NCBI GenBank assembly: GCA_047602405.1
Contig: JASGHJ010000002.1
Location: 512,001 to 576,000, forward strand
Length of the DNA: 64,000 nt
Source: Anaeromyxobacteraceae bacterium
Lineage (GTDB): Bacteria; Myxococcota; Myxococcia; Myxococcales; Anaeromyxobacteraceae
Direction of reading: 5' to 3'
In this document: one piece after another, positions 14,761 to 60,267 of the stretch
How the letters are laid out: each line of letters begins with the position of its first letter
Numbering within the stretch: position 1 is the stretch's first letter
Made by a program: the position numbers and the translations under genes
Notes under the pieces: generated by a model
Seen by the model: only the letters and a program-made list of their open reading frames with translations
What the model was told of the DNA's origin: nothing
Database searches by the model: none

Positions 14761-17493
14761 ATGTCAAAGCTCCCGTATCCGTCCTCGCAGGAGGACGCTC
14801 CGCTCTCCACGCTGCCCGCCGCCGCCCTCCGCGCCGTCTTCCGCGAGGGCTACGGCGCGGGCTCCCTGCGCGCCAATCTCATGGCGGGCCTCGTGGTCGG
14901 CGTCGTCGCGCTCCCGCTCGCGATGGCGCTCGCGATCGCGGTGGGCGTCCCCCCGCAGTTCGGCCTCTACACCTCCATCGTCGCCGGCCTCGTCATCGCG
15001 ATCCTGGGCGGCTCGCGGACGCAGGTGAGCGGCCCCACCGCCGCCTTCATCGTCATCCTCGCCCCATCTACGCGCGCTTCGGCCACTCCGGCCTGCTCGT
15101 GGCCGGCCTCATGGCCGGGGTCCTGCTCATCGGGATGGGCCTCCTGCGGATGGGGAAGCTCATCGAGTTCATCCCGCACCCGGTCACCACCGGCTTCACC
15201 GCCGGCATCGCGACCGTCATCGCGGTGCTGCAGGTGAAGGACCTCCTCGGCCTGCGGCTCGAGCACACCCCGGAGCACTTCGCGGAGCGGGTGGTGGCCT
15301 TCGTGCGGGCCGCGCCCACCGCCTCGGGCCACGAGCTCCTCGTCGGCGCGATCACGCTCTACCTGCTCCTCATGGTGCCGCGGATCACGAAGCGCGTCCC
15401 GGCGCCGCTCGTGGCCCTGCCGTTCGCCGCGCTCGTCGCGATCGCGCTCAGGACCTGGGCCGGCGCCGACGTCGCGACCATCGCGAGCCGGTTCCACTCC
15501 GTCGTGAACGGGGTGGAGGTGCGCGGCATCCCGCAGCTCCCCCCGCTCCCGATGCTGCCCTGGCTCGCGGCCGGCCCCGCGGGCGAGGCGCTCACCTGGG
15601 ACCTCGCGACGTTCCGCGCCCTCCTCGGCAGCGCCTTCGCCATCGCGATGCTCGGCGCGATCGAGTCGCTCCTCTCGGCCGTCGTCGCCGACGGCATGGC
15701 CCGCACCCGGCACGACCCCGACGCGGAGCTGCTCGCCCAGGGCGTCGGCAACGTGATCGCGCCGTTCTTCGGCGGCATCCCGGCGACCGGCGCCATCGCC
15801 CGCACCGCCACCAACATCCGCTCGGGCGGGCGCAGCCCGGTCTCCGCGGCGGTGCACGCCCTCGTGGTGCTCGCCGCGGTGCTGGTGCTCGCGCCCTTGC
15901 TCGGGTACCTGCCCATGAGCGCGCTCGCCGCGCTCCTCCTGCTCGTCGCCTGGAACATGTCCGAGGCGAAGCACTTCGTGCACACGGTGCGGGTCGCGCC
16001 GCGCAGCGACGTGGCGGTGCTGTTCACCTGCTACGGGCTCACGGTCTTCGTCGACATGGTGATCGGCGTCTCGGTGGGCATGGTGCTCGCCGCGATGCCT
16101 CTTCATGCGGCGGATGGCCCTCGTCACCGAGGCCGGCCCGGTCGACTCGGGCGAGCACGGCCTCCCCGGGCCCGTGCCGGCCGGCGTGGTGGTCTACCGC
16201 GTGTCCGGCCCGCTCTTCTTCGGCGCGGCCCAGAAGGCCATGCGCGCGCTCTCGGTCATCGCCGACCAGACGAGCGTGGTGGTCCTGCGGCTCGAGGACG
16301 TCCCGGTCATCGACGCGACCGGCCTCGTGGCCCTCGAGAGCGCGCTCGGGCAGCTCCACTCCCGCGGCGCGACCGCCATCCTGCTGGGCCTGCAGGCCCA
16401 GCCCCGGGAGTTCCTCGCGCGCACGCACCTCCTCCAGGCCTCCCACGTCATCGTCCTCGACACGCCCGAGGAGGCCCTCCGGGCCGCGGGCGAGATCGCC
16501 TCGACGCGGCGCCGGGACGCGCTCGGCGCCATCCCGCGCGACGTCTCCGTGCAGGACGTCATGCGCCGCGACGTGGCGTCGGTCCCGCCGGCGGCCACGG
16601 TCCGCGACGTCGTGGAGCTCATGCTCGCGCGCGGCCGGCGCTCCCTCCCGGTCGTGGACGGCGGCCGCCTCGTCGGCATCGTCACGAACGGTGACCTCGT
16701 GCAGCGCGGCGGGCTGGGCCTCCGGCTCGACTTCCTCTCCGAGCTGGGCTCGCCCGAGGTGCGGGCCGAGCTCGACCGCCTCGCCGGAGCGAGGACCGCC
16801 CGCGACGTGATGACCCCGTCGCCGGTGACCGTCGAGCCCGGGCTCGCGCTCCGGCGCGCGGCGGCGCTCATGACGAGGAAGCGCCTGAAGCGCCTCCCCG
16901 TCGTGGACGGGCAGGGCGCGCTCGTGGGCTGGCTCTCCCGCGTGGACGTGCTCCGCGCGATGGCCGGCGCCGGCGGCCCGGGCCTCGAGGCCCGGCCGGC
17001 CGCGTTCCCGCTCGAGACCACGCTCGCCGGCGTCATGCGCCGCGACGTCCCGGCCGTCCTGGCCGACGCGCCGCTCGCCGAGGTGCTCCAGGCGGTGGTC
17101 TCGACGCGCCTCAACAAGGCCCTCGTGCTCGACGCCGACCGCCGGGTGATCGGCCTCGTCACCGACGCGGAGCTCATCGACCGCATGACCGCCGCCGCGC
17201 GCCCCGGGATCCTCCGCTCGCTCATGCGCCGCGGCGCGCCCGAGGGGCTCACCGAGCAGCAGGCGAAGGCCCGCCGTGCGGCCGACCTGATGGTGGGCGG
17301 CGTGCCGATGGCCCGGGTCGACACGCCGCTCGGCGAGGCGATCGCGATCATGCTGAAGGCGGACCGGAAGATCCTCGCCGTGACCGACGCCGACGGCCGG
17401 CTCGCCGGCATCGTCGACCGCGCCGACCTCCTGCGCGGCGTCGCCCAGCACGGCGACGCCGACGGGACCCCGGCGCCCATCGCGAGCACCTGA
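14761..17493 (+). CDS. dauA: SulP/DauA-type anion (C4-dicarboxylate) transporter fused to STAS and four CBS domains; two apparent frameshifts (~15066, ~16097), probably sequencing errors
   Basis: [75 protein letters not shown]...DVPVIDATG, then CBS repeats. One missing and one extra base at GATC sites restore a single ~910-aa ORF. Confidence 0.85.
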
Positions 17494-17508
17494 GCGTCCG
17501 GGGTCGGG

Positions 17509-18768
17509 TCAGGGCCGCGCCGCCCGGGCCGCCCGGTCGAGGAGGGCCGCCCGCTCGCGGGCGTTGCGGGTGAGCGCGGCGGCGAGCGCGAACGCCTCGG
17601 CGGCCTCGGGGCGCCGGCCGAGCCGCTCGAGGAGCTCGCCGCGGGCGGCGGGGAGCGGGGGGTAGCCCTCGAGCGCCGCCTCGTCCCGCAGCGCCTCGAC
17701 GAGCGCGAGGCCGTCGGCCGGGCCGTACGCGAGGCCGATCGCCATCGCGCGGTTGAGCTCGACGACCGGGGACGGCGAGACCTCCGCGAGGGCGTCGTAG
17801 AGCGCGGCGATGCGCGGCCAGTCGGTGGCCGCGGCGGTCGGGGCCCGCGCGTGCTCGGCCGCGATCGCCGCCTGCAGCGCGTACGGGCCGCGCGCCCCGC
17901 CGAGCGCACGGGCGCGCTCGAGCGCCGCGCGGCCGCGCCCGGCGAGCAGCCGGTCCCAGCGCCCGCGGTCCTGCTCGAGGAGGGACACGGCCGCGCCGTC
18001 CGGGCCGGTGCGGGCGCGGGCGCGGGCCGCGGTGAGCTCCATGAGCGCGACGAGGCCGTGCACCTCGGGCTCGTCCGGGGCGAGCCCCGCGAGCACGCGC
18101 CCGAGCCGGAGCGCCTCGTCGCACAGCGCCGGACGCATGAGATCCTCGCCCGCGGTCGCCGCGTGCCCCTCGTTGAAGACGAGGTAGACCACCTGCAGCG
18201 CCGCGGGCAGCCGCTCGGCGAGCGCGGCCCCCCGGGGCACCTCGAACGGCACCCGGGCCTCCGCGAGCGTCCGCTTCGCGCGCACGATGCGCTGGGCGAC
18301 GGTGGCGGGCGGCACGAGGAACGCGCGCGCGATCTCGTCCGTCTCGAGCCCGCACAGGAGCCGCAGCGTCAGCGCCACGCGGGCCTCGAGCGACAGCACC
18401 GGGTGGCAGGCGACGAGCACGAGCCCGAGGAGCGCGTCGCCCGCGGCGCGGGGGTCCTCCTCGTGCGCAACCGGCGCGGGGCCGTCCGCCGCCTCGAGCG
18501 CGAGCGCCCCGTGCCTCGCGTCGGCGAGGGCGCGGTGCCGGAGCGCGTCGAGCCCGCGGCGCCGCGCGGCGGCGAGGAGCCACGCCCCCGGCCGCTCCGG
18601 CACGCCGTCGCGGGGCCACTGCTCGAGCGCCGCGACGAGCGCGTCCTGCGCGAGCTCCTCGGCGGCGCCCACGTCGCGGACGAGGCGGGTGAGGCTCGCG
18701 ACGAGCCTCGCCCGCTCGAGCCGGAAGACCGCCTGGACGGCCCGGCGCGCCCCGTCCGCGTCCGGCAC
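17509..18768 (-). CDS. ECF sigma factor with C-terminal TPR-like extension (ECF42 group)
   Basis: AEELAQDALVAALEQWP, ACHPVL, IARAFLVP..TVAQRIVRAK, YLVFNEG, GPYALQAAIAA.H, SPVVELNRA; cotranscribed with a DGPF gene. Confidence 0.92.
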   Translation of the reverse strand: MPDADGARRAVQAVFRLERARLVASLTRLVRDVGAAEELAQDALVAALEQWPRDGVPERPGAWLLAAARRRGLDALRHRALADARHGALALEAADGPAPVAHEEDPRAAGDALLGLVLVACHPVLSLEARVALTLRLLCGLETDEIARAFLVPPATVAQRIVRAKRTLAEARVPFEVPRGAALAERLPAALQVVYLVFNEGHAATAGEDLMRPALCDEALRLGRVLAGLAPDEPEVHGLVALMELTAARARARTGPDGAAVSLLEQDRGRWDRLLAGRGRAALERARALGGARGPYALQAAIAAEHARAPTAAATDWPRIAALYDALAEVSPSPVVELNRAMAIGLAYGPADGLALVEALRDEAALEGYPPLPAARGELLERLGRRPEAAEAFALAAALTRNARERAALLDRAARAARP

Positions 18769-18772
18769 CCGC

Positions 18773-19204
18773 CTAGCCTCGCTCCTGGAGCGTCGTGCGC
18801 AGGCGCGCCTCGCGCGCCTTCTCCTCCGGGGGCACCGCGTCGCCGAAGTCCTCCACCTCGAACAACGGCCGGAGCTCCAGGATCCCTTCCTCCCCGGGCA
18901 TCGGGTCGGGGCAGCGCCGCGCCCACTCGAGCGCCTCGTCCATCGAGCGCACCTGCCAGATCCAGAAGCCCGCCACGAGCTCCTTCGTCTCCGCGAACGG
19001 GCCGTCGAGCACCGTCTTCGGGGCGCCCGGCCGCATGACCACCCGCTTGCCGCGGACGGAGGGGTGCAGCCCGTCCCCGGCGAGCATCACGCCCGCCTTC
19101 ACGAGCTCCTCGTTGTACTTCCCCATCGCCTCGAAGAGCTCGGGCGCCGGCATCTTCCCCGCCTCGGAGTTCCGGGTTGCCTTCACGATGACCATCACGC
19201 GCAT
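18773..19204 (-). CDS. YciI/DGPF-family protein
   Basis: DGPFAETKELVAGFW motif. Confidence 0.93.
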   Translation of the reverse strand: MRVMVIVKATRNSEAGKMPAPELFEAMGKYNEELVKAGVMLAGDGLHPSVRGKRVVMRPGAPKTVLDGPFAETKELVAGFWIWQVRSMDEALEWARRCPDPMPGEEGILELRPLFEVEDFGDAVPPEEKAREARLRTTLQERG

Positions 19205-19285
19205 GTCGTTCGCCTCTCGTCCTTGGGTTGTCGGCCCGGGTTCCCGGCCCGCAGCGGCCGGTGTGCCACCTGGCTCTACACCGAC

Positions 19286-19312
19286 GTCGGGCGGGCGGCC
19301 CGATCATCGACA
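19286..19312 (-). promoter_or_regulatory. Candidate ECF42 autoregulatory promoter TGTCGA-N17-CGAC
   Basis: Minus strand reads TGTCGA tgatcgggccgcccgcc CGAC about 80 nt upstream of the DGPF ATG; matches the recalled ECF42 -35/-10 motif. Confidence 0.65.
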
Positions 19313-19479
19313 CGCGCCCCATCGGAGGCGGTCACCGCTGACCCTGCGTCCGTGCGCTCGCCCCGGCGTTCCGGAGGCGCGCGAGCACCAGAGCCGGGGG
19401 ACAGCACCGAGGCCGGAGGCGGGCGCCGTCCCCCGAACCGCGGGCTTGCTCGCGCGTCCGCATCGGCCAGAATGCGCCC

Positions 19480-21387
19480 ATGGCCCAGCGCCGCATCGGG
19501 GACGTGCTCGTCTCGCGCCGCGTGGTCTCCGGCGCCATGGTGACGGCCGCCCTCGGGGAGGCCAAGCGCAAGAACGAGAAGCTCTGCTCGGTCCTGCTCC
19601 GGCACGGCGTCGAGGAGGGGCGGCTCGCGGGCGCGCTCGCCGAGCTGTTCGGCACGCCCGGCGTCGACCTCTCGCGCTCGGTGATCCCGCTCGACGTGCT
19701 GGCGCTCGTCCCGGCGGAGGTCGCCCGCGCCGACCTCGTCCTTCCGCTCTCCCGGGAGGGCGGCCGCCTCCACCTCGCCGTCGCGAGCCCCGAGAGCGCC
19801 ACCGCCCAGGTGGACGAGGTGCGCGTCTCGAGCGGCCTCGAGGTCTCGGTCTACGTCGCCGTCCACGCCTCCCTGAAGGACGTGATCGAGCAGGCCTACA
19901 CCGCCTCCACCCGCGGGCACCTCGTGTGGCGTGGGAAGGGCGCCAGCGCGTCGGGCCCGTGGGTCGAGCGCGTGCAGGCCGTCGCCTTCGCGCGGCCGCC
20001 GCAGCCGGCCCCTGCCACCCGCGCGGCGATGCCGCCCCCGCCGCCCGGCAGCCAGGCGACGCTCGGACGGCTCAAGCTCGACAGGGGACCCACAAACACG
20101 CAGCCCGCCGTGCAGGCCGCGCCCGTCCCGCGCCCGCCGCCCGCCCCCGCGCGCGCGACCGCGCCCGCGATCGTCCCGCCGCCGCCCGCCGCCCTCGTCC
20201 CGCCTCCCCCGCCGGCGCTCACGCCGCCCCCGCTGCCGCAGGCGCGGGCCCAGGCCGCCCCGGCGCCCGCGCCGGACCCGGTCGAGATCCTCCACGGCGT
20301 GCCCGCGCTCGACCTCGACGCGCTCGGCGGCGTGGAGGTCGAGCCCATCGAGGTGGAGACCGACGCGGTCGTGGTCGCCGCCCCCCAGGTGCCGGTCACC
20401 GAGCGCGAGATCGTCGTCTCCGGGGACGAGCCGGCGGCGGCGCCCGCCTCGCCGGCGCTCGACCTCGACGCCGAGGACGTCGTCGTGCTGGGCGACGAGC
20501 CCGCCCCGGCGCTGCCCCCCGCGGCCGAGCGCGCCGCCGCCGCCGCGGAGCCGCCGGCGCTCGACGTCGAGATGCTGGCGCTCACGCCGCCGCCGCGCCC
20601 GGGCGGGAAGCGGATCGTGCTCGTCGTGGACGACGAGCCCGAGGTCGCGCTCCTCGCGAAGAGGACCCTCGAGCACGCGGGCCACGCGGTCGCGACGGTC
20701 GGTGACGGCGAGGCCGCCCTCTCCGAGTCGGCGCGCCTGCAGCCGGATCTCGTGCTCCTCGACGCGATGCTCCCGAAGCTGCACGGCTTCGAGGTCTGCA
20801 TGCGCCTGCGGGCCGACCCGCGCACCTCGCGCATCCCGGTCGTCATCATGACCGCCGTGTACCGGGGCTGGCGGTTCGCCGACGACGCCCGCGAGGCCTA
20901 CGGCGCCGAGGACTACATCGAGAAGCCCTTCTCGCTCGACGACCTGCGGCGGCGCGTCGACGCGGCCCTCGACCGCGGCCGCCCCCGCCGCAAGCCGCCG
21001 CCGGGCTTCGCCGACGCCTACCGCCGCGGCCGCGAGGCCTTCCGCGCCGGCGACCACGCCGCCGCCGCGAAGGCCTTCGAGGAGGCGCTCGCGATCGACG
21101 CGTTCTCGCCGGAGGCGCACGCCGCGCTGGGCGTCACGCTGCGCGCGACGGGCGACCGCTTCCGCGCCATGACGATGCTCGAGCGCGCCGTGGAGCTCCG
21201 CCCCCAGGACCTCACCTCCCTGCAGGCGCTCGCGAACGTCTACGACCGCAACGGCTTCTTCCGCAAGGCCATCGAGGCCCTGGAGCGCGCCCTCGCCGCC
21301 GCGAAGGACGACGACGTGCGCGAGGCGCTCCGGAGCGACCTCATGGGCCGCCTCGACCTCGACGGCGCCACGTTCGCGGGGAACTAG
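19480..21387 (+). CDS. GspE-N/MshEN-like domain, Pro-rich linker, receiver domain and TPR protein
   Basis: RRIGDVLV...ALAELFGTPGVDL N-terminus; VLVVDDE...LVLLDAMLPKLHG...YIEKP receiver; C-terminal TPR helices. Confidence 0.85.
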   Translation: MAQRRIGDVLVSRRVVSGAMVTAALGEAKRKNEKLCSVLLRHGVEEGRLAGALAELFGTPGVDLSRSVIPLDVLALVPAEVARADLVLPLSREGGRLHLAVASPESATAQVDEVRVSSGLEVSVYVAVHASLKDVIEQAYTASTRGHLVWRGKGASASGPWVERVQAVAFARPPQPAPATRAAMPPPPPGSQATLGRLKLDRGPTNTQPAVQAAPVPRPPPAPARATAPAIVPPPPAALVPPPPPALTPPPLPQARAQAAPAPAPDPVEILHGVPALDLDALGGVEVEPIEVETDAVVVAAPQVPVTEREIVVSGDEPAAAPASPALDLDAEDVVVLGDEPAPALPPAAERAAAAAEPPALDVEMLALTPPPRPGGKRIVLVVDDEPEVALLAKRTLEHAGHAVATVGDGEAALSESARLQPDLVLLDAMLPKLHGFEVCMRLRADPRTSRIPVVIMTAVYRGWRFADDAREAYGAEDYIEKPFSLDDLRRRVDAALDRGRPRRKPPPGFADAYRRGREAFRAGDHAAAAKAFEEALAIDAFSPEAHAALGVTLRATGDRFRAMTMLERAVELRPQDLTSLQALANVYDRNGFFRKAIEALERALAAAKDDDVREALRSDLMGRLDLDGATFAGN

Positions 21388-23681
21388 AAGGAGAACTGGG
21401 CCCCGAGCGCCGGGGTGACCGCCCAGTTCGCGCTCGGGCGGTGCCTCGTGCGCGGGTGGAGCTCGTAGCCGAGCTGGGCCCGGATGCGCTCGAGGACCGT
21501 GAACGCCAGGGCCGCCTGGACCACGGGCCCCGAGCAGGCGGCGATGCGGCCCGGATCGAGGCAGGGCTTCTGGCCGCCCTCGTCGGCGGCGGTGAGGAGC
21601 CAGCCGCCGCGCAGGAGGAGGGCGGTCTGGGTGCGGTAGTCGGCCAGGAAGCCCGGCTGGATCTCGAGGCCGGCCAGGGCCGAGAAGGCCGGGCGCACCG
21701 GATCGCTCGAGATGAGCTGGGTGACCTTGTCGATCTGGAAGGCCGCGTGGAGGCGGGCGTGGGTGCGGCGCTTCGAGGGGAGCTCGCGGGCGTAGCCGAG
21801 CTCGAGGTCGCGCCCGAGCAGGCCCCAGGCCGTGTGGCGCGGCGGGACCCACGCGACCGCGTTGAGCGCGAGGGTGGACGCGAGCGAGAACGCGGCGCGC
21901 TCGGCCGCGGGCTGGTCGGAGGCGAGCCGCGCGACGACGTCGCCGACCCTGCGGCGGAAGGCGGCCATCGCCTCGTCGGCCTGGTCGCGCGCCAGCCCGA
22001 GATCGCGGAAGAAGAAGCGGTGCGCGGACAGGAGGCGGAGCGCGTGCCCGGCCTCGCCCTCGCCCACGCGCTCCTGCCACTCGAGGCCGTCCGGCCAGTG
22101 GACGCCGTTCACGGCCGGCGGGGGGACGCCGCCCATCGCGGCGCGGCAGTGGTCGTGGCGCACGCCCACCGCCTCGGCCGCGGTGCGCTTCGCGCAGTCG
22201 GAGTAGAGCCGGTCGAGGGAGACCTGCAGGAGGATGCGGAAGTCCTCGAGCGACGGCTCCTCGCAGGCCGGGGCGAGCTCGGGGTCGTGCTCGACCGCCG
22301 CCCGCATGCACGCGAGCGGGCGCCAGCCGCCGATCACCTTCGCCTCGCCGCGCTCGCCCTCCCAGGGCAGCTCCGGGAAGTGGAGCGGGGGCGCGTCCTC
22401 GCCCCGGCGCCGCGCGTCGCCGACCACGTCCTCGAGCATCCGCCGGGCGTCGTACATGCCGAGGTAGAAGTCGAAGACGCGGAACTGCGTCTCGACGAAG
22501 CCCAGGAACGCCGAGAGCGGCCGGCTGGCGGTGGGGAAGTGGCGGCGGGGGACGAGGGTGCGCCCGCCGATCTCCGGGTGCTCCTCCACGAGGGTGAGGA
22601 GCTCCTTGCCGCGGGAGGTGGAGATGAAGCCGTCGAGGATCCGCCCGAGCAGCGGGGTGAGCGAGGCGGGCGGGCCCTCGGAGGCGACCGGCCGCTCGCC
22701 GGGCCAGGCCGGCACCTCCGGCGAGACGTAGACGAACAGCACGTCGTCCGGCAGCGCGAAGCGCGAGAAGTCCGGGTGCGGCGCCCAGCGGCGGCCGCTG
22801 CCCTCGGGCACGAGCCCCGCGCCGGCGAGGCGTGCGGCGAGGCGCAGGGGCGCGTTGTCGAGGATGCCGCCGTCGACGAAGAGATCCGAGCGCGCCCGCG
22901 CGGCGGTGCAGGGGCCGGCGTCCGCGCCGGCCGGGTCGTAGACGCAGTGGGCGAGCGGCTGCGGCTGGAAGGCGACGGGGAACGCCGCGGAGGCGAGCAG
23001 CAGCTCGCGCAGCGAGCGGAACGGGACCTCGCCGTCGGGGAGCTCCGGCAGCAGGAGCTGGGCCACCGGGAAGTCCGGGTCCACGTAGTTCCGGATGCTG
23101 GGCGCCGTCCCGGGGCCGCGGCCCCGGATGCGCACCACGAACTTCTCCTCGATGCGCGGGACGGTGATGAGGCCCCCCGCCGACCGCACCTCGCGCGGCG
23201 TGACCCGGGTGACCGAGACGCCGAGCACGACGTCGCAGCCGGAGTCGAGCCCGAGGGCGAACGCCGCCTCGATGGCGTCCGCGGAGCGCTCGAGCGCCCC
23301 GCGCGAGAACGCCGCGAGCGCGCCCGGGCTCCCGGCGGTGAGGCCGTTCAGGCCGAGCGGGATCCACGACTGCCAGAAGAGCCCGTCGGCGGGCCGGGTG
23401 CCCTCGACCCCGCAGGCGGTGATGACCGAGATGAGCCCGTTCACCGCGCCCGCCGAGGCGCCGGTGATTGCGCGCACGCGGGCGAAGCCCGGGTTGGCGC
23501 GCGTGACGAGGAGGCCGTAGTGGAGGACGCCCGCCTCGTAGGCGCCGAGCGAGACGCCGCCGGCGATCGCGAACACGAGGCTCGCGCCCTCGGCGTGCCG
23601 GCGGGCCGGGGCGGGCGGATCGGCGCGGGCCGCGCCCGGGGCGAGCGCCGCGGCGAGGACGAGCGCCGCCGCGCGCCGCAT
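21384..23681 (-). CDS. Exported patatin-like phospholipase with probable C-terminal outer-membrane beta domain
   Basis: Signal peptide; GGVSLGAYEAG, GASAG (GxSxG), DGG; ends in GAQFSF. ATG overlaps the GGDEF gene stop (TGATG). Confidence 0.85.
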   Translation of the reverse strand: MRRAAALVLAAALAPGAARADPPAPARRHAEGASLVFAIAGGVSLGAYEAGVLHYGLLVTRANPGFARVRAITGASAGAVNGLISVITACGVEGTRPADGLFWQSWIPLGLNGLTAGSPGALAAFSRGALERSADAIEAAFALGLDSGCDVVLGVSVTRVTPREVRSAGGLITVPRIEEKFVVRIRGRGPGTAPSIRNYVDPDFPVAQLLLPELPDGEVPFRSLRELLLASAAFPVAFQPQPLAHCVYDPAGADAGPCTAARARSDLFVDGGILDNAPLRLAARLAGAGLVPEGSGRRWAPHPDFSRFALPDDVLFVYVSPEVPAWPGERPVASEGPPASLTPLLGRILDGFISTSRGKELLTLVEEHPEIGGRTLVPRRHFPTASRPLSAFLGFVETQFRVFDFYLGMYDARRMLEDVVGDARRRGEDAPPLHFPELPWEGERGEAKVIGGWRPLACMRAAVEHDPELAPACEEPSLEDFRILLQVSLDRLYSDCAKRTAAEAVGVRHDHCRAAMGGVPPPAVNGVHWPDGLEWQERVGEGEAGHALRLLSAHRFFFRDLGLARDQADEAMAAFRRRVGDVVARLASDQPAAERAAFSLASTLALNAVAWVPPRHTAWGLLGRDLELGYARELPSKRRTHARLHAAFQIDKVTQLISSDPVRPAFSALAGLEIQPGFLADYRTQTALLLRGGWLLTAADEGGQKPCLDPGRIAACSGPVVQAALAFTVLERIRAQLGYELHPRTRHRPSANWAVTPALGAQFSF

Positions 23682-24790: not shown

Positions 24791-24935
24791 CGCGCGTGGG
24801 TGAACCGTACCACGCCCGCCCCGCGCCGGCCCGCGCCCGGGTCGCGGCGGGCGTCCCGCGAAGGCGGGGGTGCGCGCCCGTGGCGCCGGGCAGGGCGTTC
24901 GATCCATCATCCGGAGCGGGGGGAGGGAGCACCTC

Positions 24936-25289: not shown

Positions 25290-25373
25290 CAGGGGGCCGT
25301 CCGGCCGGCGGTTCCCGATCGACAGGCGCGGCGGCGCGTGGTTTCTTCGCGGTCTCTCGACAGGAGCGCCCGC

Positions 25374-27005: not shown

Positions 27006-27025
27006 GCCCGCGTTAGGAGCCCGGG

Positions 27026-28776: not shown

Positions 28777-28782
28777 CGGTCC

Positions 28783-51165: not shown

Positions 51166-51961
51166 CGTGACGAAGCGGGTCGAGCTCATGGGGCTCGGCT
51201 TCGATCCGGTCCGCATGGACGAGGCGGTGCGCACCTGCGTCGCGTGGTGCGAGGGGCCGCGGCAGCCGCGGTCGGTCATCACCGCGAACGCCAGCATCCT
51301 CTGCATGATGCGGCGCGATCCCGAGCTCGCCGCCGCCTGCCGGGCGGGGGATCTCAACCTCGCCGACGGCATGTCCGCGGTCTGGGCGCTCGGGGCGAAG
51401 GGCACCCCGGTGCCGGAGCGCGTCGCGGGCGTCGACCTCATGGCGCGGCTCCTCAAGGAGGCCGGGCGCCGGAGGCTCCGGGTCTTCTACCTCGGCGCGA
51501 AGGAGGAGATCGTCTCCACCCTCGCCCGCACCTCCGCCGAGAAGTACCCGGGGCTCGTCGTCGCCGGGTACCGCAACGGCTACTTCAAGCCGGAGGACCA
51601 CCCGGCCCTCGTGGAGGCCATCCGCGAGGCGCGGCCGCACATGCTCTTCGTGGGCATGCCGAGCCCGTTCAAGGAGAACTTCCTCGAGCGGCACCGGGCA
51701 CGCCTCGACGTGCCGGTGCTGATGGGCGTCGGCGGCAGCTTCGACGTGCTCGCGGGCCACATCTCCCGGGCCCCGGTCTTCATGCGGAAGATCGGGATGG
51801 AGTGGGCCTGGCGGCTCCTGATGGAGCCCCGCAAGATGTGGAAGCGGTACCTCACCACCAACAGCGAGTTCGTGTGGGTCGCCGGGCGCGAGGCCCTGGC
51901 GCACCGGCTCGGGCTCGGCGGGCGCTCGAAGCAGCCGCCCGCGGGAGCCCCCACGCCGTGA
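51155..51961 (+). CDS. WecG/TagA/CpsF family glycosyltransferase (GT26)
   Basis: ADGMS, ERVAGVDL, VGMPSPFKE, MGVGGSFD, GMEWAWRL.MEPR..KRY. Confidence 0.93.
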   Translation: MQPDVTKRVELMGLGFDPVRMDEAVRTCVAWCEGPRQPRSVITANASILCMMRRDPELAAACRAGDLNLADGMSAVWALGAKGTPVPERVAGVDLMARLLKEAGRRRLRVFYLGAKEEIVSTLARTSAEKYPGLVVAGYRNGYFKPEDHPALVEAIREARPHMLFVGMPSPFKENFLERHRARLDVPVLMGVGGSFDVLAGHISRAPVFMRKIGMEWAWRLLMEPRKMWKRYLTTNSEFVWVAGREALAHRLGLGGRSKQPPAGAPTP

Positions 51962-53115
51962 CGAACCCCAGGAACGTCGTCGTCTTCATGGGCACCCGCC
52001 CGGAGGCGATCAAGCTCGCCCCGGTCGTCGCCGCGCTGCGCGCCGCCCCGGACGTCCGCTGCACCGTGGTCGCCACGGGCCAGCACAAGGAGATGTTCCG
52101 GCAGGTCGCCGAGACCTTCGGGATGGGCGTCGACGCCGACCTCGACGTCATGCGCCCGAACCAGACCCTCGCCGGCCTCACCGCGCGGCTCATGGAGGGG
52201 ATCGACGGCTGGCTCGAGAAGGGCGGCTTCGACCTCGCCATCGTCCAGGGCGACACCACCACCGTCCTCGTCGCGGCGCTCGCCTGCTTCTACCGGCGGA
52301 TCCCCATCGGCCACGTCGAGGCGGGCCTGAGGACCGGCAACATCTGGTCGCCGTTCCCCGAGGAGGTCAACCGCAAGCTCGCGACGCCCATCGTCTCCCT
52401 GCACTGGGCGCCCACCACCTCCGCGCGCGACGCGCTCCTGCGCGAGGGCGTGGACCCGAAGACCATCACCGTCACCGGCAACACCGTGATCGACGCCCTC
52501 CTCATGGAGGTCGGCCGCCAGAAGGCGGAGCCGGCGCTGCGCGCCGGGATCGACGCCGAGCTCTCCGCGCTCCTCGGCCCGGGCTGGGACCGCGGCCCCT
52601 ACGTGCTCGTCACCGGCCACCGCCGCGAGAACTTCGGCGACGGCATCGCGCAGATCTGCGAGGCCATCGCCACGCTCGGCAAGCGCTTCCCGGATCACCG
52701 CTTCGTCTACCCGGTGCACCTCAACCCGAACGTGTCGGTGCACGTGAACCGGCTGCTCGGCGGCGTGCCGAACGTGAAGCTCATCCCGCCGCAGGGCTAC
52801 CGGAACTTCGTGGCGCTCCTCGCCCACTCCCGCCTCGTCCTCACCGACTCCGGCGGCGTGCAGGAGGAGGCCCCCTCGCTCGGGAAGCCCGTGCTCGTCA
52901 TGCGCGACACCACCGAGCGCCCCGAGGGCGTCGAGGCGGGCACCGCGCTCCTCACCGGCCCGAAGGCCGAGGCCATCGTCTCGCACGCGACCCGGCTCCT
53001 CTCGGATCCGGCCGCCCACGAGGCCATGGCGCGCGCGCGGAACCCGTACGGCGACGGCAAGGCCGCCGGGCGGATCCTCGAGTCCCTGCGGGCGTTCCTC
53101 GCGGCGCGCGGGTAG
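51958..53115 (+). CDS. wecB: UDP-N-acetylglucosamine 2-epimerase (non-hydrolysing)
   Basis: GTRPEAIK, TGQH, QGDTTT, HVEAGLR, HRREN, TDSGGVQEEAP, NPYGDG. Confidence 0.96.
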   Translation: MTNPRNVVVFMGTRPEAIKLAPVVAALRAAPDVRCTVVATGQHKEMFRQVAETFGMGVDADLDVMRPNQTLAGLTARLMEGIDGWLEKGGFDLAIVQGDTTTVLVAALACFYRRIPIGHVEAGLRTGNIWSPFPEEVNRKLATPIVSLHWAPTTSARDALLREGVDPKTITVTGNTVIDALLMEVGRQKAEPALRAGIDAELSALLGPGWDRGPYVLVTGHRRENFGDGIAQICEAIATLGKRFPDHRFVYPVHLNPNVSVHVNRLLGGVPNVKLIPPQGYRNFVALLAHSRLVLTDSGGVQEEAPSLGKPVLVMRDTTERPEGVEAGTALLTGPKAEAIVSHATRLLSDPAAHEAMARARNPYGDGKAAGRILESLRAFLAARG

Positions 53116-53145
53116 GCCGCCGCCGCGCCGCCGACGGGGCTCCGG

Positions 53146-55092
53146 CTACAGCCGGACCCCGTTGCGCTCGCACCAGCGCACGAGCACGTAGAGCGCCCAG
53201 ATGCGGCTCCAGTAGAGCCCGGCGCCGCCCTCGAGGAAGCCCTTCCAGAGCCTCCCCACGACGTCCGGCGAGAGGCCGGCGGCCTTCACGAGGGCGGGGT
53301 CGCGCAGCGTCGCGTCGACCGAGTCCCTCAGTCCGCGGCGGATCCACCGATCGAAGGGCAGCACGAAGCCGGACTTCGGGCGCTCGAAGATGGCGGGGTC
53401 GAGCCCCTTCAGGCCCACCCGCCGCAGGATCGACTTCTTGCCCACCGGGTCGTAGCGGAGGGCGTCCGGGAGCCGGTCCACCGCCTCGAAGAGCGCCTGG
53501 TCGACGAGCGGGACGCGCTGCTCGAGGGAGACCGCCATCGAGGCGACGTCGTTGTCGCGCAGCAGGCGCTCCGCGAGGAAGAGCCGCTGCTCGAGCACCG
53601 AGATGGTCGAGAGCGGGGAGCGGCCGCGGGTCTCCTGCGCGAGGCGCGCGTGCATCGCGCGCGGGAGCCCGTCCTCGAGCGCGCCCGCGAGGCCCGGGGC
53701 GAGGAGGTCCTGCTGGAACGAAGGGAGGTAGAGCGCGTAGGCGAACTGGTACAGGGCGGTGAGGTCGTCGCCGCGCTCGACCATGTCGGGCAGCTTCGCC
53801 CAGCGGGTCTGCGGAGGGATCCCACCCTGCGACGGCGAGCGCAGCGCCGCCGCGGCGACCGAGGCGCCCGCGGTGAGCACCTTGCGGGGCAACCAGCGGG
53901 TGGCGCGGGCGAAGCGGTGGAGCACCGGCAGGTCGCGAAACGACGAGTAGCCGCCGAAGAGCTCGTCGCCGCCCGTGCCCGCGACGGCGACGGTGAAGCC
54001 GGCGTGGCGGATGGCGCGCGAGAGCACGAAGGCGTTGATGGCGTCGAAGGTCGGCTGGTCGATGCCGTCGATGGCGGCGTCGAGCTCTCCGCGGAAGCCG
54101 TCCTCGGTGAGGACGATCTCCCGGTGCTCGGTGCCGATCGCGGCCGCGATCCGGCGCGCGATCGGGCCCTCGTTGAGCTCCTGCTCCTCGAAGGCGAGGG
54201 TGAAGGTGTGCACCGGCATCGGCGACACCTTCCTCGCGATGTTCGCGACGGCGGACGAGTCCACGCCGCCGGAGAGGAAGACCGCGAGCGGCACGTCGGA
54301 GGCGAGGTGCAGGCGCACGCTCTCCTCGACGAGCTCGCCGAGGCGCGCCTCGGTCATGTCGGCGGCGGGCGGGCGCTCCGGGATGCGCCAGAAGTCCTCC
54401 GCCCACACCTCCGCGCCCCGGGCGTCCACCTCGACCGCGCGGCCGGGCCAGAGCATCTCGACGCCCTCGACGGCGGTGCCCGGGCCGACCACGTAGCCGT
54501 TCCACACCACCGAGGCGACGGCCGCGGGCGAGAGGCGCGGCGTGCCGAGCAGGCCCGACGCGACGAGCGCGCGCACCTCGGAGGCGAACGCGAGGGACCA
54601 GCCGGCGGCCTCGGGGTCGGCGGGGCGCGCGACGTAGAGCGGCTTGATGCCGAGGGGGTCGCGGGCGAGGAGGAGCCGGCGGGTCTTCGGGTTCCAGCGG
54701 GCCACGGCGAACATCCCACGCAGCCAGCGGAGCGCGTCCGGACCGTGAAGGCCGAGCGCGCGCAGCATGACCTGGGAGTCGCCGCTCGACTCGAACCGCT
54801 GGCCGGCGGCGGTGAGGCGGTCGCGCAGCGCGACGTAGTTGTAGATCTCGCCGTTGAAGACCATCGTCTCGCCGGTGACCGCGTCGGTCATCGGCTGCGC
54901 GCCGGCGGGCGAGAGGTCGAGGATGGCGAGGCGGCGGTGGGCGAGGATGGCGCCCCAGCCCCGCGCGTCCGGCGTGGTCTCCCAGACCCCCTCGCCGTCG
55001 GGCCCGCGGTGCTTCAGGGCGCCGTGCATGCGCGCCAGCGCCTCACGGTTGCGCTGGTCGAGCCTGCCCACGATGCCGGAGATTCCACACAT
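53146..55092 (-). CDS. asnB: Asparagine synthase-like glutamine amidotransferase
   Basis: N-terminal MCGI, HRGPD, HRRLAILD, FNGEIYN, LSGGVDSS, GTGGDELFGGY. Confidence 0.93.
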   Translation of the reverse strand: MCGISGIVGRLDQRNREALARMHGALKHRGPDGEGVWETTPDARGWGAILAHRRLAILDLSPAGAQPMTDAVTGETMVFNGEIYNYVALRDRLTAAGQRFESSGDSQVMLRALGLHGPDALRWLRGMFAVARWNPKTRRLLLARDPLGIKPLYVARPADPEAAGWSLAFASEVRALVASGLLGTPRLSPAAVASVVWNGYVVGPGTAVEGVEMLWPGRAVEVDARGAEVWAEDFWRIPERPPAADMTEARLGELVEESVRLHLASDVPLAVFLSGGVDSSAVANIARKVSPMPVHTFTLAFEEQELNEGPIARRIAAAIGTEHREIVLTEDGFRGELDAAIDGIDQPTFDAINAFVLSRAIRHAGFTVAVAGTGGDELFGGYSSFRDLPVLHRFARATRWLPRKVLTAGASVAAAALRSPSQGGIPPQTRWAKLPDMVERGDDLTALYQFAYALYLPSFQQDLLAPGLAGALEDGLPRAMHARLAQETRGRSPLSTISVLEQRLFLAERLLRDNDVASMAVSLEQRVPLVDQALFEAVDRLPDALRYDPVGKKSILRRVGLKGLDPAIFERPKSGFVLPFDRWIRRGLRDSVDATLRDPALVKAAGLSPDVVGRLWKGFLEGGAGLYWSRIWALYVLVRWCERNGVRL

Positions 55093-55266
55093 CTCGCACC
55101 CGCCGTATTGGTGAGTGAAAACGGTAGCACGCAACGGTACACACCCGTTGTACCGCCCTCATGGACGGGCCCCCGGGCGGGCCTCCTCCCCTCACTCGCC
55201 GTGTCGCTTGCCCCCGGGATGGCCCCCGCGGGCCCCATACCGCAGGATGTGCGCCCCCAACCGACG

Positions 55267-56539
55267 ATGAACGACCGCCTCTCGATCCTGCACGTCTCGA
55301 TGATGCCCTCGAGCCCGCCGCGCTTCGGCGCCCAGGCGCGCATGCACGGGCTGCTCGTCGAGCTCGCGAAGCGCCACGACGTGACCGCGCTCGCCCTCCA
55401 CGACGACGGCTTCGACGTGGAGGAGGCCCGCCAGGCGATGGGCGCCTACTGCCGCGAGGTGGTGCTCGTCCCGAACCCGAACGGCCAGGCCGGCCTCGTG
55501 AAGCGCACCCTGCAGCTCCGCTCGATCGCCTCCCCGCGGAGCTACGAGCGGCTGCGGCACGAGATCCCGGGCCTGCAGGCGGTCATCGACCGGCTCATGA
55601 CGGCCACCCGGTTCGACGTCGTGAACCTCGAGTTCCCGTACCTCGCCCACTACGACTACCGCCGCGCGCCGCCGGGGGCGCCGTTCCCGCCGACCGTGGT
55701 GGACGCCCACGACATCGCCTGGGACATCGTCCGCCAGGTGTCGGTGAACCCGAAGGTGAGCCGGGGCCGGCGCCTGTACGCGCGGCTCAACTGGCCGAAG
55801 CTCAGGCGGGAGGAGACCGAGGTCTTCCGCGCCGCCGACGCGACGGCGGTCTGCAGCGACCTCGACGGCGCGCGGCTGCTCGCCGACGTGCCCGGGGCGC
55901 GCGTGAAGGTGATCCCCAACGCGGCGGACGTCGAGTTCTACCGGCCCCGGCCCGAGGACCCTCCACCCGACGGGCGGACGGTGCTCTTCTTCGGGCTCCT
56001 CTCCACGATGCCCAACATGGACGGCATCGCCCACTTCGTGCAGGACATCTGGCCGCACGTGCTCGCCCGCCGCCCCGACGCCCGCTTCAAGATCGTGGGC
56101 AAGAGCCCGCCGCCCCAGGTCGCGGCGCTCGCGGGGCCGTCCATCGAGCTCACCGGCTTCGTGGACGACCTGCGCCCGCACCTCTCCGCCGCGTCCGCCA
56201 TCGTGGTCCCGCTCCGCATGGGGAGCGGCACGCGGCTCAAGAATCCTCGAGGCGATGGCGCAGGGGAAGGGCATCGTCTCGACGCGCCTCGGGGCCGAGG
56301 GCATCGACGTCGAGCCGGGCCGCCACCTGCTCGTGGAGGACGCCCCCGAGGCGTTCGCGGGCGAGGTGGTGCGGCTCCTCGACGACCCCGCCCTCGGCGC
56401 GCGGCTCGGCGCGGCCGCCCGCACGCTCGCGGTCGAGCGGTACGCGTGGGGCGCCGCGGCGCAGGCGCTCGAGGGGCTCTACCGCGAGGTCATCCTCGCG
56501 CGGCGGGACGGCGTGAACGGAAAGGGTGGGAGATCGTGA
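55267..56539 (+). CDS. Glycosyltransferase family 4; apparent frameshift at 56241-56245
   Basis: VIPNAAD, TGFVDDLRP; removing one A restores GSGTRLKILEAMAQGKGIVST..GAEG. Confidence 0.88.
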
Positions 56540-57591
56540 AGGCAGCCCTCATCGGCGCGGGACAGATCGCGCGCCAGCACCTCGCGTGCCTGCAGACGCT
56601 CCCGGGCGTCGAGGTCGCGGGCGTGTGCGACCTCTCGCCGGCGGTGGCGGAGGCCGCGGCCGAGCGCTACGGCGTCGGCCGCTGGTTCACCGACCACCGC
56701 GAGATGCTCCGCGAGGTGAAGCCGGACGTCGTGCACGTCACGACGCCGCCCACCTCGCACGCGAAGCTCTCGCAGGACGCCATCGACGCCGGCGCGCACG
56801 TGGTCGTCGAGAAGCCGATCACCGCCTCCTGGGCCGAGTACGAGGCGCTCGCGGCGTACGCCGCCGCGAAGGGCCGGGCCCTCGTCGAGGACCACAACTA
56901 CGTCTTCAACTCCGCGCCGCAGGAGATCCTGCGCCGGGTCGAGTCCGGCGAGCTCGGCAAGGTCGTCCACGTGGACGTCCTCATCTGCCTCGACATCCTC
57001 GGGCCGGACGGCTTCGCCGACCCGAACGTGAAGAACCCGATCCTGGCCGTCCCGGGCGGCGCCATCGCGGACTTCCTGCCCCACCTCGCCTCGCTCGCGC
57101 ACGCCTTCATCGGCGGGCACACCGAGGCGCACGGCCTCTGGGGCAAGCGCCGCCCCGGCGTGCTGCCCTTCGACGAGTTCCACGGGGTGGTGCAGGGCGA
57201 GCGCGGCACCGCGACGCTGGGCTTCTCGTCCACCTCCCAGCCCGACGGCTTCTGGCTGCGCGTCTACGGCGAGAAGCAGCAGGCCACCGCGAACCTGTTC
57301 GAGACCCGGCTCACCTTCACGAAGGTCCGCCCCGGACCGAAGCCCCTCGTGCCGCTCAAGAACGGGCTCGAGGAGGGGAAGGAGACCCGGCGGGCCGCGA
57401 TGAACACGCTGCTCCGCAAGTTCAAGAAGACCCCGGGCGCCTACGAGGGGCTCTGGGAGCTGCTCCGCCGGACCTACGCGGCGCTCCAGGCCGGCGGGAA
57501 GCTGCCGGTGGGCCCCGGGGAGGTCCGGGCGGTGAACGCGCTGGTCGAGGCCTTGAAGCCGCGCCAGGCGGCGGGGGAGGTGCGGTCGTGA
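56536..57591 (+). CDS. Gfo/Idh/MocA family oxidoreductase
   Basis: IGAGQIA, HVTTPP..H, VVVEKP. Confidence 0.9.
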   Translation: MKAALIGAGQIARQHLACLQTLPGVEVAGVCDLSPAVAEAAAERYGVGRWFTDHREMLREVKPDVVHVTTPPTSHAKLSQDAIDAGAHVVVEKPITASWAEYEALAAYAAAKGRALVEDHNYVFNSAPQEILRRVESGELGKVVHVDVLICLDILGPDGFADPNVKNPILAVPGGAIADFLPHLASLAHAFIGGHTEAHGLWGKRRPGVLPFDEFHGVVQGERGTATLGFSSTSQPDGFWLRVYGEKQQATANLFETRLTFTKVRPGPKPLVPLKNGLEEGKETRRAAMNTLLRKFKKTPGAYEGLWELLRRTYAALQAGGKLPVGPGEVRAVNALVEALKPRQAAGEVRS

Positions 57592-58601
57592 GGGCGCTCG
57601 TCACGGGGGCGAACGGGTTCCTGGGCCGGCACGTGGTGGACGCGCTCGTCGCGCGGGGCCACCAGGTGCGCGCGCTCGTGCGCCCGGCGGCGAAGCTCGA
57701 GCCGCTCGGCTGGCCGGCGTCGGTCGAGGTGGTGCGCGCCGACCTGCGCGCCTCGCGCGACCTCGAGCAGGCCTTCGAGGGCGTGGACGTGCTCGTGCAC
57801 CTCGCCGCGGCGGTGACCGGCGGCGAGGACCTGCAGTTCGCGGCCACCGTGTCCGGCACCGAGAAGCTGCTCGCGGCCATGGCGCGGACGTCCTGCCGGC
57901 GCCTCGTGCTCGCGTCCTCGTTCTCGGTCTACGACTGGAGCAACATCCACGGGACGCTCGACGAGACCTCTCCCATCGAGCCCCCGCCCGACCTCTACGA
58001 GCGCGACGGCTACTCGATCGCGAAGTCGTGGCAGGAGCGGGTGACCCGGCGGGCGGCCGAGGCACACGGCTGGGAGCTCACCGTGCTCCGGCCGGGCTTC
58101 ATCTGGGGCCGCGACCACGCCTACCTCGCCGCGCTCGGCCAGCAAATCGGCAAGCTCCACGTGGTCATCGGGCCCACCTCGCACATCCCGATGACCCACG
58201 TCGAGAACTGCGCGGACCTCTTCGCGCTGTGCGCGGAGGACCCCCGCGCCCGCGGGAGGACGCTCAACGTCGTGGACGGCCCCGGCGAGCGGATCTGGAG
58301 CTTCCTCGGCGACTACCTCCGCGGCTCGAAGGAGCGCGGCTTCCGCATCCCGGTGCCGTACTTCCTCGTGTACGCGGTGGTGGCGCTCGCCTACGCCACG
58401 ATCTTCAAGCGCAACCCGAAGCTGCCGCACGTCCTCGTGCCGTGCCGCTTCCAGTCGCGGCTGAAGCCGCTGCGCTACACGAACCGGCTCGCCCAGGAGC
58501 TCCTGGGCTGGCGCCCGCCGCTCTCGCACGCGGAGTGCCTCGAGCGCACGTTCGGCCCCGAGCGGCCGAGGGCGATCGCCGCGCAGGCCCGGGCGGCCTG
58601 A
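57588..58601 (+). CDS. NAD-dependent epimerase/dehydratase
   Basis: VTGANGFLG, HLAA, SSFSVY, YSIAK, LRPG. Confidence 0.9.
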   Translation: MRALVTGANGFLGRHVVDALVARGHQVRALVRPAAKLEPLGWPASVEVVRADLRASRDLEQAFEGVDVLVHLAAAVTGGEDLQFAATVSGTEKLLAAMARTSCRRLVLASSFSVYDWSNIHGTLDETSPIEPPPDLYERDGYSIAKSWQERVTRRAAEAHGWELTVLRPGFIWGRDHAYLAALGQQIGKLHVVIGPTSHIPMTHVENCADLFALCAEDPRARGRTLNVVDGPGERIWSFLGDYLRGSKERGFRIPVPYFLVYAVVALAYATIFKRNPKLPHVLVPCRFQSRLKPLRYTNRLAQELLGWRPPLSHAECLERTFGPERPRAIAAQARAA

Positions 58602-58674
58602 ACCACGGTTCGCGACCCTCGATCAGCTGACGCTGCTCGAGGATCGCGCCGTGGTTCAGGGTCTTCTTCGTCTT
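58598..58674 (+). terminator. Long bulged hairpin with T-rich tail, probable intrinsic terminator
   Basis: CTGAACCACGG...CCGTGGTTCAG outer stem with inner stems, followed by GTCTTCTTCGTCTT. Confidence 0.55.
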
Positions 58675-58792
58675 GGGGGGCTTCGCCCCCCTCCCCGACG
58701 AGCGCGGCTCGTCGGGGCCCCTCCCGGTTCGTGGGGGCCCTGGCGCGCTTCGTCCCTCGCCTCCGGCTCGGGACTCGCGCGCCGCCCCACGG
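58675..58792. repeat. Multi-hairpin REP-like structured element between convergent genes
   Basis: GGGGGGC-ttc-GCCCCCC; CCCCGACGAGC-gcg-GCTCGTCGGGG; nested CGTGGGG/CCCCACG, GGCGCG/CGCGCC, GTCCC/GGGAC. Confidence 0.55.
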
Positions 58793-58829
58793 AGAGGACC
58801 TGTTTCCTCCGGGGCGGTCGCCCCGCGGC

Positions 58830-60267
58830 CTACTTGCGGGTCTCGGCGAGCACCGGCAGCCCGAGGTTGCGCTCGACCTGCCAGCGCTCCTCCACGCGGC
58901 CCCGGTAGACGTCGTAGACGGTGGCGGCGAAGACGGCGCACACCGCCCCGCCGACGATCCCGCCGAGGACCAGGATGAGCCCCATCGGCCGCAGGGGGCC
59001 CTTCGGCATCTGCGGCGGCGAGATCACGCTGTAGCGCTCGCGGAAGGACGCCTGGGCGGTGTCGAGCTCGAATCCGGGCGGCGTCGATGCGCTGCACCAG
59101 CCCGGCGCGGCGGCGCAGCAGCGCCTCGATCTGGCCCCGCTCGTAGTCGAGCCGCGGATCGTCCACCTCGAGGATCCGCGCGCGCGTGGCGTTGAGCTCC
59201 TCCTGGACGTTGCCGGGCGAGGGCAGCGGGGCCGCGCCGCCGGTGGCCGCGGCGCGCTGCGCGAGGAGGGCCTCGAGCTTCTTGATCTCGTCGCGGAGCT
59301 CGTGCACCTGCGGCGACGGCTGGGCGAGGCTCTCGATGGCCTGCCGCGTGCTGACCACGGTGGGGTGCCCCTCGGCGTACTCGCCGCGCTGCTGCTCGAG
59401 CTGGACCTGCAGCTCGCCGAGCCGGCGCTGCCGGAAGCCCTCGAGGTCGTCGAGGGCGCGCCGGCGGGCGACGAGGAGGCCCTCGAGCCGGACGCTCTCC
59501 TCGTCGCGGGCCACGGCGGCCCGGGGCTGGCCGGTGCGGCGCGCCGGGACGGCCGTGCGGCCGCGCAGGCTGCGCTCGCGCTCCTCGAACTGCTGCAGCG
59601 CGGTGGCAATCTCCTTCTCGAGGCGGGCGTCGTGCACCTGCAGGATCGTGATCGCCTCGCCCACGGCGCCGATGTCCGCGGCGTTGCGGGACTCGAGGAA
59701 GCTCTGCACCGCGGCCTGCACCACGTCGAAGGCGATCTGGGGATCGGCCCAGTCGAAGCCGATCGTGACCGTCCCCTCCTGCGTGACGTTCACCCACAGC
59801 CGCTTGTCGAGGGCGAGGGCGAGGTCCTCGGTGATCTGCTCGGTCGTCCGGGCCGTGCCGGAGAGGCGCTCGGAGAGCCAGTCGCGCAGGCGCGACGCCG
59901 GCGAGCGGGTCTCGAGGTAGCGCTCCACGAGGTGCGTCTGGTTCACGAGCGCGACGAGGTTGTCGTGCGCGACGATGACCTCGCGCGCGGCCCGGGTCGG
60001 GACATCGAGCTGCCGGTTCACCTCGGGGTTCGACAGCACCCCCATGATCGAGCCCTTCTGGGCGAGGATCGAGGCGCGGACCTCGTACTTCGCCGGCAGG
60101 ATCCGGGCGAGGACGAGGGCGATCGCGAGGACGCCGAGGTGCACCGCGATCGCCAGGCGGCGGTGGCGGCCGGGGGCGCGGAGCGCGAAGCCGACCCAGT
60201 CGGCGATCGGGCCGAAGACCTCGCCTTGATCGGGGGTGTAGCTGCCGGAGGGGCCGGGGTAGCTCAA
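58830..60267 (-). CDS. Polysaccharide co-polymerase (Wzz/Wzc N-type, no kinase domain), paralog 2; apparent frameshift at 59070-59074
   Basis: GAGGAG RBS with TTG start; PAKYEVRAS, YAEGHP, RYSVISPP..P..P..P, TM2, LGLPVL. Removing one base restores ARIELDTAQ. Confidence 0.82.

Follow-up and report, generated by a model that had tools for sequence, protein, structure and literature searches.

GATC-linked frameshifts in an Anaeromyxobacteraceae assembly: probable consensus errors at methylated sites and a candidate orphan methyltransferase in place of Dam

Main finding

The stretch of DNA considered here (the window) spans 64,000 nucleotides of an Anaeromyxobacteraceae bacterium (assembly GCA_047602405.1, contig JASGHJ010000002.1; G000:C2:512001-576000, with G000 standing for this genome and C1 and C2 for its contigs) and contains eight places where a reading frame is broken by a single base. 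Sequencing errors at methylated words, and not mutations, very likely account for these breaks; six are at GATC, one is at GCTCTTC, and one is likely a slip in a run of C. The best explanation, in which considerable confidence can be placed, is that the breaks are long-read consensus errors at methylated sites, that the mark at GATC (probably N6-methyladenine, 6mA) is likely set by an orphan methyltransferase of the DpnA type that has likely replaced Dam, and that GCTCTTC is likely methylated by a strain-specific double methyltransferase. Both the assignment of enzymes to motifs and the preference for 6mA over N4-methylcytosine (4mC) are what we infer from sequence. If Dam was indeed replaced in this way, the lineage of a model organism would harbor an unstudied Dam-like epigenetic system that can be read from assembly errors alone. 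The part played by GATC methylation in the replication, repair, and development of myxobacteria becomes testable.

The eight breaks and their context

The genome (6.16 Mb, 74% GC, two contigs, 98.4% complete) was compared with its closest relative (G010; ~94% identical, genome ~6.0 Mb), of which 2.0 Mb was taken and 1.71 Mb aligned. Against this relative, all eight breaks are isolated single-base insertions or deletions (indels), and the strings reported in a preliminary description of the window are present where that description placed them. The breaks, followed by a set of substituted sites, are:

15061..15066, plus strand: SulP/STAS/CBS gene, one base missing; loss from a run of five C most likely, GATC reading less likely
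16097..16104, plus strand: same SulP/STAS/CBS gene, extra C within GCTCTTC, the second error motif
32342..32346, plus strand: PIG-L deacetylase gene (~31784-32435), GATTC in place of GATC
34034..34038, plus strand: 343-aa gene without Pfam match (~33063-34095), GATTC replacing GATC near the 3' end
46806..46810, plus strand: Wzy_C gene (~46773-48291), GAATC, with GATC presumed
48345..48349, plus strand: ~156-aa gene without Pfam match (~48294-48761), GATTC replacing GATC
56241..56245, plus strand: group 1 glycosyltransferase gene, GAATC replacing GATC
59070..59074, minus strand: gene without Pfam match (~58833-60144), GAATC replacing GATC (plus-strand reading)
2053..59611: nine GATC sites of the relative that read GATT or AATC here, ending near 2056, 4032, 8472, 12383, 23469, 27597, 37588, 58148, and 59611

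The relative carries GATC in register at five of the eight breaks (32343, 34035, 48347, 56241, and 59071); at 46808 it reads a synonymous GAC, and the GATC is presumed there for that reason. The preliminary description had placed all eight breaks on GATC with no need for a homopolymer, which holds for these six and fails for two. The sequence of the relative at 16098 is ATG CTC TTC, which shows the surplus base to be a C belonging to GCTCTTC. Five consecutive C are found in the relative at 15065, and arithmetic from site rates makes a homopolymer slip the more likely event, by a factor of ~20 over the loss of a G (C5 runs lost one base at 3 of 1,820 sites, 15065 among them; G000 retains CCCATC at 665 sites of this kind, as against CCGATC at 86). 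In essence the earlier reading was right, and its view that the genes are intact is supported (see below for the splitting of single-copy rpoB, rpoC, and nusG).

The placement of the breaks is not due to chance, since 6 of the 15 GAATC/GATTC sites in the window coincide with breaks, compared with 0.13% for random coding windows of equal width. The nine substitutions, which the preliminary description had overlooked and which were counted over the 360 GATC sites of the window that aligned, are mostly the same artefact. In short-read contigs, which come from relatives at ~94-95% identity and not from this strain (the best run contained 0.23 of the words), the extra base is absent in 4 of 4 runs at each of 56242, 59071, and 32344, in 3 of 4 at 16098, and in 1 of 4 at 46805, among the matches listed. 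At two further positions (9390 and 9595) there are single-base differences where the frame is open in this genome and the gene of the relative is broken.

Errors across the genome

The alignment contains 801 well-flanked gap clusters of non-triplet length. Of these, 580 were set aside (non-coding or outside called genes), 190 break this genome, 25 break the relative, and 6 are ambiguous. Since the filter missed three of the eight window breaks, genome-wide frameshift counts are lower bounds. Insertions of one base make up 163 of the 190 clusters, and none of the 25 clusters breaking the relative is, by eye, an A or T insertion in GATC. Taken as simple events, the 190 comprise 90 that break a GATC of the relative, 41 that are restorable to or adjoin GATC (a loose rule), 45 at GAAGAG, and 14 others. 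Per-site rates from 1.45 Mb of aligned coding DNA were high at GATC (99/7,949), AGATC/GATCT (92/3,254), and GAAGAGC (the reverse complement of GCTCTTC; 41/886), compared with control words (GTAC 0/2,964; CATG 4/3,061; GAATC 0/72; GACTC 1/1,291; GGAGAGC 0/714). The genome-wide enrichment of indels at GATC and the link between errors and a modified motif, both proposed earlier, are thus supported. The rate at GATC depends strongly on the flanks (AGATCT 12/194, TGATCA 0/95), and errors at the second motif are confined to its exact 7-mer (0-0.3% at single-base variants of GAAGAGC; GAAGAGG 2/436). The single modified motif previously envisaged gives way to two, perhaps three.

Other lines of evidence agree with these rates. 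An unbiased word scan ranked GATCG, GATCT, and GCTCT at the top. Substitutions from GATC in the relative to GATT in this genome number 162, as opposed to 14 in reverse, with five control words symmetric, and A-to-G changes at the GATC adenine show no asymmetry (1,134 versus 1,085). A reference-free hidden Markov model (HMM) of frameshifts, with a recall of 178/190, placed a frameshift at 244 of 707 coding GAATC/GATTC sites versus 24 of 4,352 GACTC/GAGTC sites, on both contigs. The model is noisy (where an alignment was available, 34 of its 99 filtered calls had no match, mostly -1 calls) and was used for +1 calls and site-level rates only; no indel relative to G010 is seen at its extra calls inside the window. 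The affected genes include rpoB, rpoC, and nusG, which are single-copy yet split at GATC and which therefore point to consensus errors and not, in all cases, to real changes; dnaK and a gene for GAPDH are interrupted in the same manner. Homopolymer errors are rare (6 in 11,885 runs of 4-7). Counts of the word itself (GATC ratio 0.98, neither depleted nor enriched) are uninformative on methylation.

Frameshifts affect 175 of 1,703 called G010 genes. In this assembly, which represents its species, approximately one gene in ten appears broken although it is intact; extrapolation from 190 per 1.45 Mb gives ~700 false frameshifts genome-wide, which renders pseudogene and gene-loss calls on this assembly unsafe. 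Methylation motifs, including a strain-specific 7-mer, can be recovered without raw signal when an unpolished assembly is set against that of a close relative.

The artefact is of a known kind. According to the relevant passages of PMC11610603, C2T/G2A errors dominate R10.4.1 assemblies, are enriched at GATC, and disappear after amplification, with G6mATC in K. pneumoniae; a preprint (bioRxiv 10.64898/2026.01.14.699587) describes, in the corresponding parts, motif-linked A2G/G2A errors and skips indels. The errors described here share with these nanopore R10.4.1 errors the concentration at methylation motifs, GATC foremost, and the G-to-A/C-to-T direction; they differ in that +1 insertions (GAATC/GATTC) are about as frequent as substitutions, which are what those published passages cover. 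From the error signature and the rarity of homopolymer errors, we infer a nanopore platform for this assembly. A modified base would distort the read signal on one strand, whereupon the G before the A would either be misread as A, turning GATC into AATC/GATT, or be retained alongside the miscalled A, giving GAATC/GATTC.

Another genome of the genus that carries the orphan gene (G001) displays the same GATC errors (7/21 versus 0/100 in 157 kb) and no GCTCTTC errors (0/15), and G010 shows neither signal (1/44, 1/142). In stretches of two other orphan carriers (G045 and G004), +1 calls without a link to GATC were seen (22 and 31 classed as other in ~80 kb), perhaps due to other motifs, noisier assemblies, or poor model fit.

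A candidate enzyme for GATC

The preliminary description placed the responsible enzyme outside the window, and a candidate was indeed found elsewhere on the contig: a beta-class PF01555 gene (G000:C2:848176-849030, minus strand) with DPPY ahead of FxGxG. Among its best plasmid matches is a protein 46% identical to it, the second of the pSRQ700 methyltransferases. The LSNGG and PNLxCRxFTHSTE blocks are common to the two; a CcrM-type protein differs there. The plasmid pSRQ700 carries LlaDCHI, a DpnII-related GATC system, as stated in passages of PMC6458302 and PMC4190342. The gene forms a single uninterrupted frame in G010 (G010:C3:45937-46788) and, among the matches listed, in every orthologue. 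On these grounds, GATC is likely methylated by this orphan DpnA-type methyltransferase.

The search for other enzymes was negative on several counts. No match over cut-off to PF02086 (D12) or TIGR00571 indicated a Dam in this genome, no LlaDCHI-type nuclease or DpnM was matched by tblastn at E 0.01, and no C5 methyltransferase was found, for want of which 5-methylcytosine (5mC) was rejected as the mark. There was no match to PAPS-reductase/DndC/SspD, DndD, or DndB, with DndE and SspB/C/E outside the search. Hence the proposed genome search for GATC methyltransferase or dnd genes yielded the DpnA-type candidate and no DndC, DndD, or DndB; amongst the modifications that had been entertained, ordinary methylation is most likely, while phosphorothioate and 5mC are without gene support in this 98.4% complete genome. 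GANTC, the target of CcrM, was also rejected (GAATC 0/72 and GACTC 1/1,291 frameshifts).

The candidate can be placed relative to three known systems. With DpnA, the second of the methyltransferases in systems of the DpnII type (here LlaDCHI, on pSRQ700), it has in common the 46% identity, the signature blocks, and DPPY; it differs in having no DpnM-type partner or nuclease in this genome and 30 genus loci and in being vertically conserved, not mobile. A LlaDCHI-type nuclease adjoins a relative of the orphan at 8 of 68 loci (one weakly; seven being relatives from outside the genus) and at 0 of 30 genus loci. With CcrM, an orphan GANTC methyltransferase that also provides the nearest solved structure (6PBD), it shares the beta-class family, orphan status, and lineage-wide occurrence; it lacks the C-terminal extension, scores 238 against a cut-off of 830 with the CcrM model NF050803, and is accompanied by no errors at GANTC. 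With Dam of Gammaproteobacteria (D12 family), it shares the likely target, solitary, single-copy, and family-wide occurrence, a GATC cluster upstream of dnaA, and co-occurrence with MutH in one family; it is a beta-class PF01555 protein not homologous to Dam at family level, and there is no MutH in the family of this genome.

A conserved orphan methyltransferase is defined in a section of PMC4752239 as one with no cognate nuclease that occurs in over 50% of related species, and the candidate is solitary and conserved in that sense. The terms Myxococc-, Anaeromyxobacter, and Deltaproteobacteria do not occur in the main text of that paper, and the portions concerned of PMC10810934, PMC3973325, and the Nanomotif preprint hold nothing decisive on this enzyme. 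A literature search returned no paper on Anaeromyxobacter together with GATC and a methyltransferase or methylation motif, and other papers returned did not, judging from their titles and the openings of their abstracts, deal with this enzyme; REBASE, outside that search, may already list these genes and motifs.

Distribution of the orphan and Dam

The distribution of the orphan was surveyed in 37 genomes of the genus (including this one) and in a single sample of 120 genomes from nine families (f1, f2, and so on) of the order. It is found in 34 of the 36 other genus genomes, the two without it being 87% and 74% complete, and in all genomes of three families (f1 30/30, f3 9/9, and f6, likely the Myxococcaceae, 31/31), compared with 0 of 50 in the six other families. 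Dam (TIGR00571, E 1e-40), counted in a sample matching the first in family sizes and genome handles, displays the opposite distribution, with 4 of 70 in f1, f3, and f6 and 41 of 50 in the six other families. This complementary spread within one order suggests non-orthologous replacement of a housekeeping methyltransferase, Dam, and likely replacement by a DpnA-type orphan over three families is the part worth following.

MutH, identified by Pfam in f3 (5/9), f8 (10/30), and f2 (1/1) and in no genome of f1 or f6, provides a clue to the modified base. It reads hemimethylated G6mATC. Four of the four Dam-less f3 carriers tested contain MutH over the equivalog cut-off, and its retention there makes the orphan the likely source of the mark in these genomes, which in turn favors 6mA. 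The orphan may play a Dam-like housekeeping role in the control of dnaA or the origin and, in one family, in strand marking for MutH. Upstream of dnaA in this genome there are seven GATC in 382 bp (Poisson p 0.004), and amongst the families (400 bp upstream was available at 26 of 31 loci surveyed) the number per 400 bp is 5-9 in f1, 7-14 in f3, 1-7 in f6, 6-10 in the Dam-bearing f8, and 0-4 in f2, f4, and f5. These upstream sites fit a role at dnaA, if unevenly. When intergenic GATC density is ranked genome-wide, dnaA lies outside the top eight and short tandem repeats rank first. At three dnaA loci of f6 (L332, L334, and L335), one GATC in ~1.3 kb of coding sequence is accompanied by 4-7 in the 400 bp upstream; the contrast is less marked in the other families.

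The balance of this evidence tips, by a small amount, towards a scenario in which Dam was displaced, in the common ancestor of three families (that of Anaeromyxobacter and likely the Myxococcaceae among them), by a domesticated DpnA-type enzyme from a DpnII-like restriction system. The enzyme would now supply housekeeping G6mATC, serve mismatch repair by MutH in one family, and mark the GATC cluster at dnaA.

Second and third motifs

For the second motif, GCTCTTC, the likely enzyme is a strain-specific 906-aa protein with two methyltransferase halves (SPPY and SPPF; G000:C1:74422-77142), an assignment made from gene content and motif occurrence. Among the 37 genus genomes it occurs in this genome only (it is absent from G001), and it sits in a low-GC, insertion-sequence-rich island beside tRNA genes. 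Its homologues have a conserved HNH-nuclease neighbor at 27 of 70 metagenome loci, and this genome encodes that neighbor as a 420-aa HNH-type protein (C1:90939-92198), presumably similar in sequence to SapI, with no match in Pfam, NCBIfam, PADLOC, or PDB. Avoidance of GCTCTTC near the homologues is weak (35 versus 50.9). The word is the SapI/BspQI site according to a passage of PMC3017599, and SapI is listed as an HNH-family type IIS enzyme in Table 1 of PMC2441816. In common with the type IIS systems SapI and BspQI are the GCTCTTC word and an HNH nuclease plus two strand-specific methyltransferase domains; the difference is that here 14 kb lies between the nuclease and methyltransferase genes, which an inversion between insertion sequences has parted. 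A split IS630-like element contains two identical inverted repeats of 2,662 bp (C1:71055-73716 and 87774-90435), and we take them to be IS21-like. Inverting the segment between them would place the methyltransferase and nuclease genes tail to tail, as in other loci.

A third motif, CTGCAG, is a weak lead. It occurs at 9 of 40 residual +1 calls (1.3 expected) with no substitution support, and this genome encodes a 1,262-aa PstI/BsuBI-type methyltransferase-nuclease fusion (G000:C2:2292359-2296147). Two weak N6_Mtase candidates with no motif assigned are located at G000:C1:160k-161k (apparently frameshifted) and C2:3746k-3749k.

Alternative explanations

Several observations weigh against methylation of GATC to 6mA by a Dam-replacing orphan as the source of the errors. 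Two breaks interrupt the candidate gene itself in this assembly, the first in a GATC and the other in a GAAGAGC, and both are read as errors. Its identity to a CcrM-type protein (45.5%) is close to that with the pSRQ700 enzyme, and in a tree of 38 rows (three loci not extracted) the deep branches are unsettled and one CcrM-type branch is long. The three carrier families probably represent one event, so that the counts are not independent, MutH is found in 0 of 30 genomes of the family to which this genome belongs, and the dnaA cluster is uneven in families that carry Dam (f8 6-10; f4 and f5 weak, 0-4). Little or no signal was seen in three orphan carriers for which the platforms are unknown (G045 0/16, G004 1/10, G012 2/17). 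Further such points, on the identity of the modified base, the published record of insertions, and the reality of some substitutions, are weighed below with the alternatives they bear on.

An unlikely alternative accepts the artefact and the orphan and holds that the mark is GAT4mC, or that another methyltransferase of this genome makes the mark. The error pattern is strand-symmetric, and a G-to-A change or added A before a modified A is the same as a C-to-T change or added T at a modified C, so that the consensus cannot name the base and does not distinguish 6mA from 4mC; a C called as T, or a T added ahead of the C, is equally compatible with modification of that C and with modification of an A on the opposite strand. 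The same pattern appears at GCTCTTC, whose candidate enzyme has SPP motifs, typical of 4mC enzymes, and this genome has three further N6-type methyltransferase candidates. Set against these points, the signature blocks of the orphan match the second enzyme of pSRQ700/DpnII-type systems, MutH is retained in Dam-less carriers, the G2A/C2T pattern at G6mATC is reported in the relevant part of PMC11610603, and the other candidates consist of the PstI/BsuBI-type fusion and the two weak N6_Mtase hits. It is less probable still that the basecaller, assembler, or polisher is biased at these words, or that other platform kinetics act there, with no modification reported by the errors. The platform is not known, the flank dependence is strong, and the accounts in PMC11610603 and bioRxiv 10.64898/2026.01.14.699587 describe, in the passages at issue, substitutions and not insertions. 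A bias of this sort is hard to reconcile with a second motif that is an exact 7-mer, with the occurrence of GCTCTTC errors in the genome to which the double methyltransferase is unique, as opposed to G001, where both the enzyme and the errors are missing, and with the lack of either signal in G010.

A non-methyl modification of GATC (e.g., phosphorothioate or deazaguanine) appears very unlikely. The insertion rate of 1.25% would be high for a mark often seen by basecallers, and this genome has two full-length tgt-family genes (C2:2792157-2793314 and C2:1478705-1479760); these, however, score 493 and 474 bits, as canonical TGT, the dnd-type searches were negative in a nearly complete genome, and a fitting methyltransferase is present. 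That the frameshifts are real mutations (pseudogenes or the work of a GATC mutator) is scarcely credible. The changes from GATC to GATT do lean towards synonymous sites (120/133 versus 79% possible, p 4e-4), and a share of these substitutions may be real mutations. Yet rpoB, rpoC, and nusG are split as single copies, as many as 175 of 1,703 called genes are hit, there is no other sign of decay, and +1 insertions dominate.

Arrays of GATC-containing hexamers

Arrays of GATC hexamers were observed in intergenic regions of this genome at G000:C2:3644510-3644995 (23 GATC) and C1:316249-316672 (17 GATC), and a short array of the same kind is present in G010 opposite position 7566 of the window.

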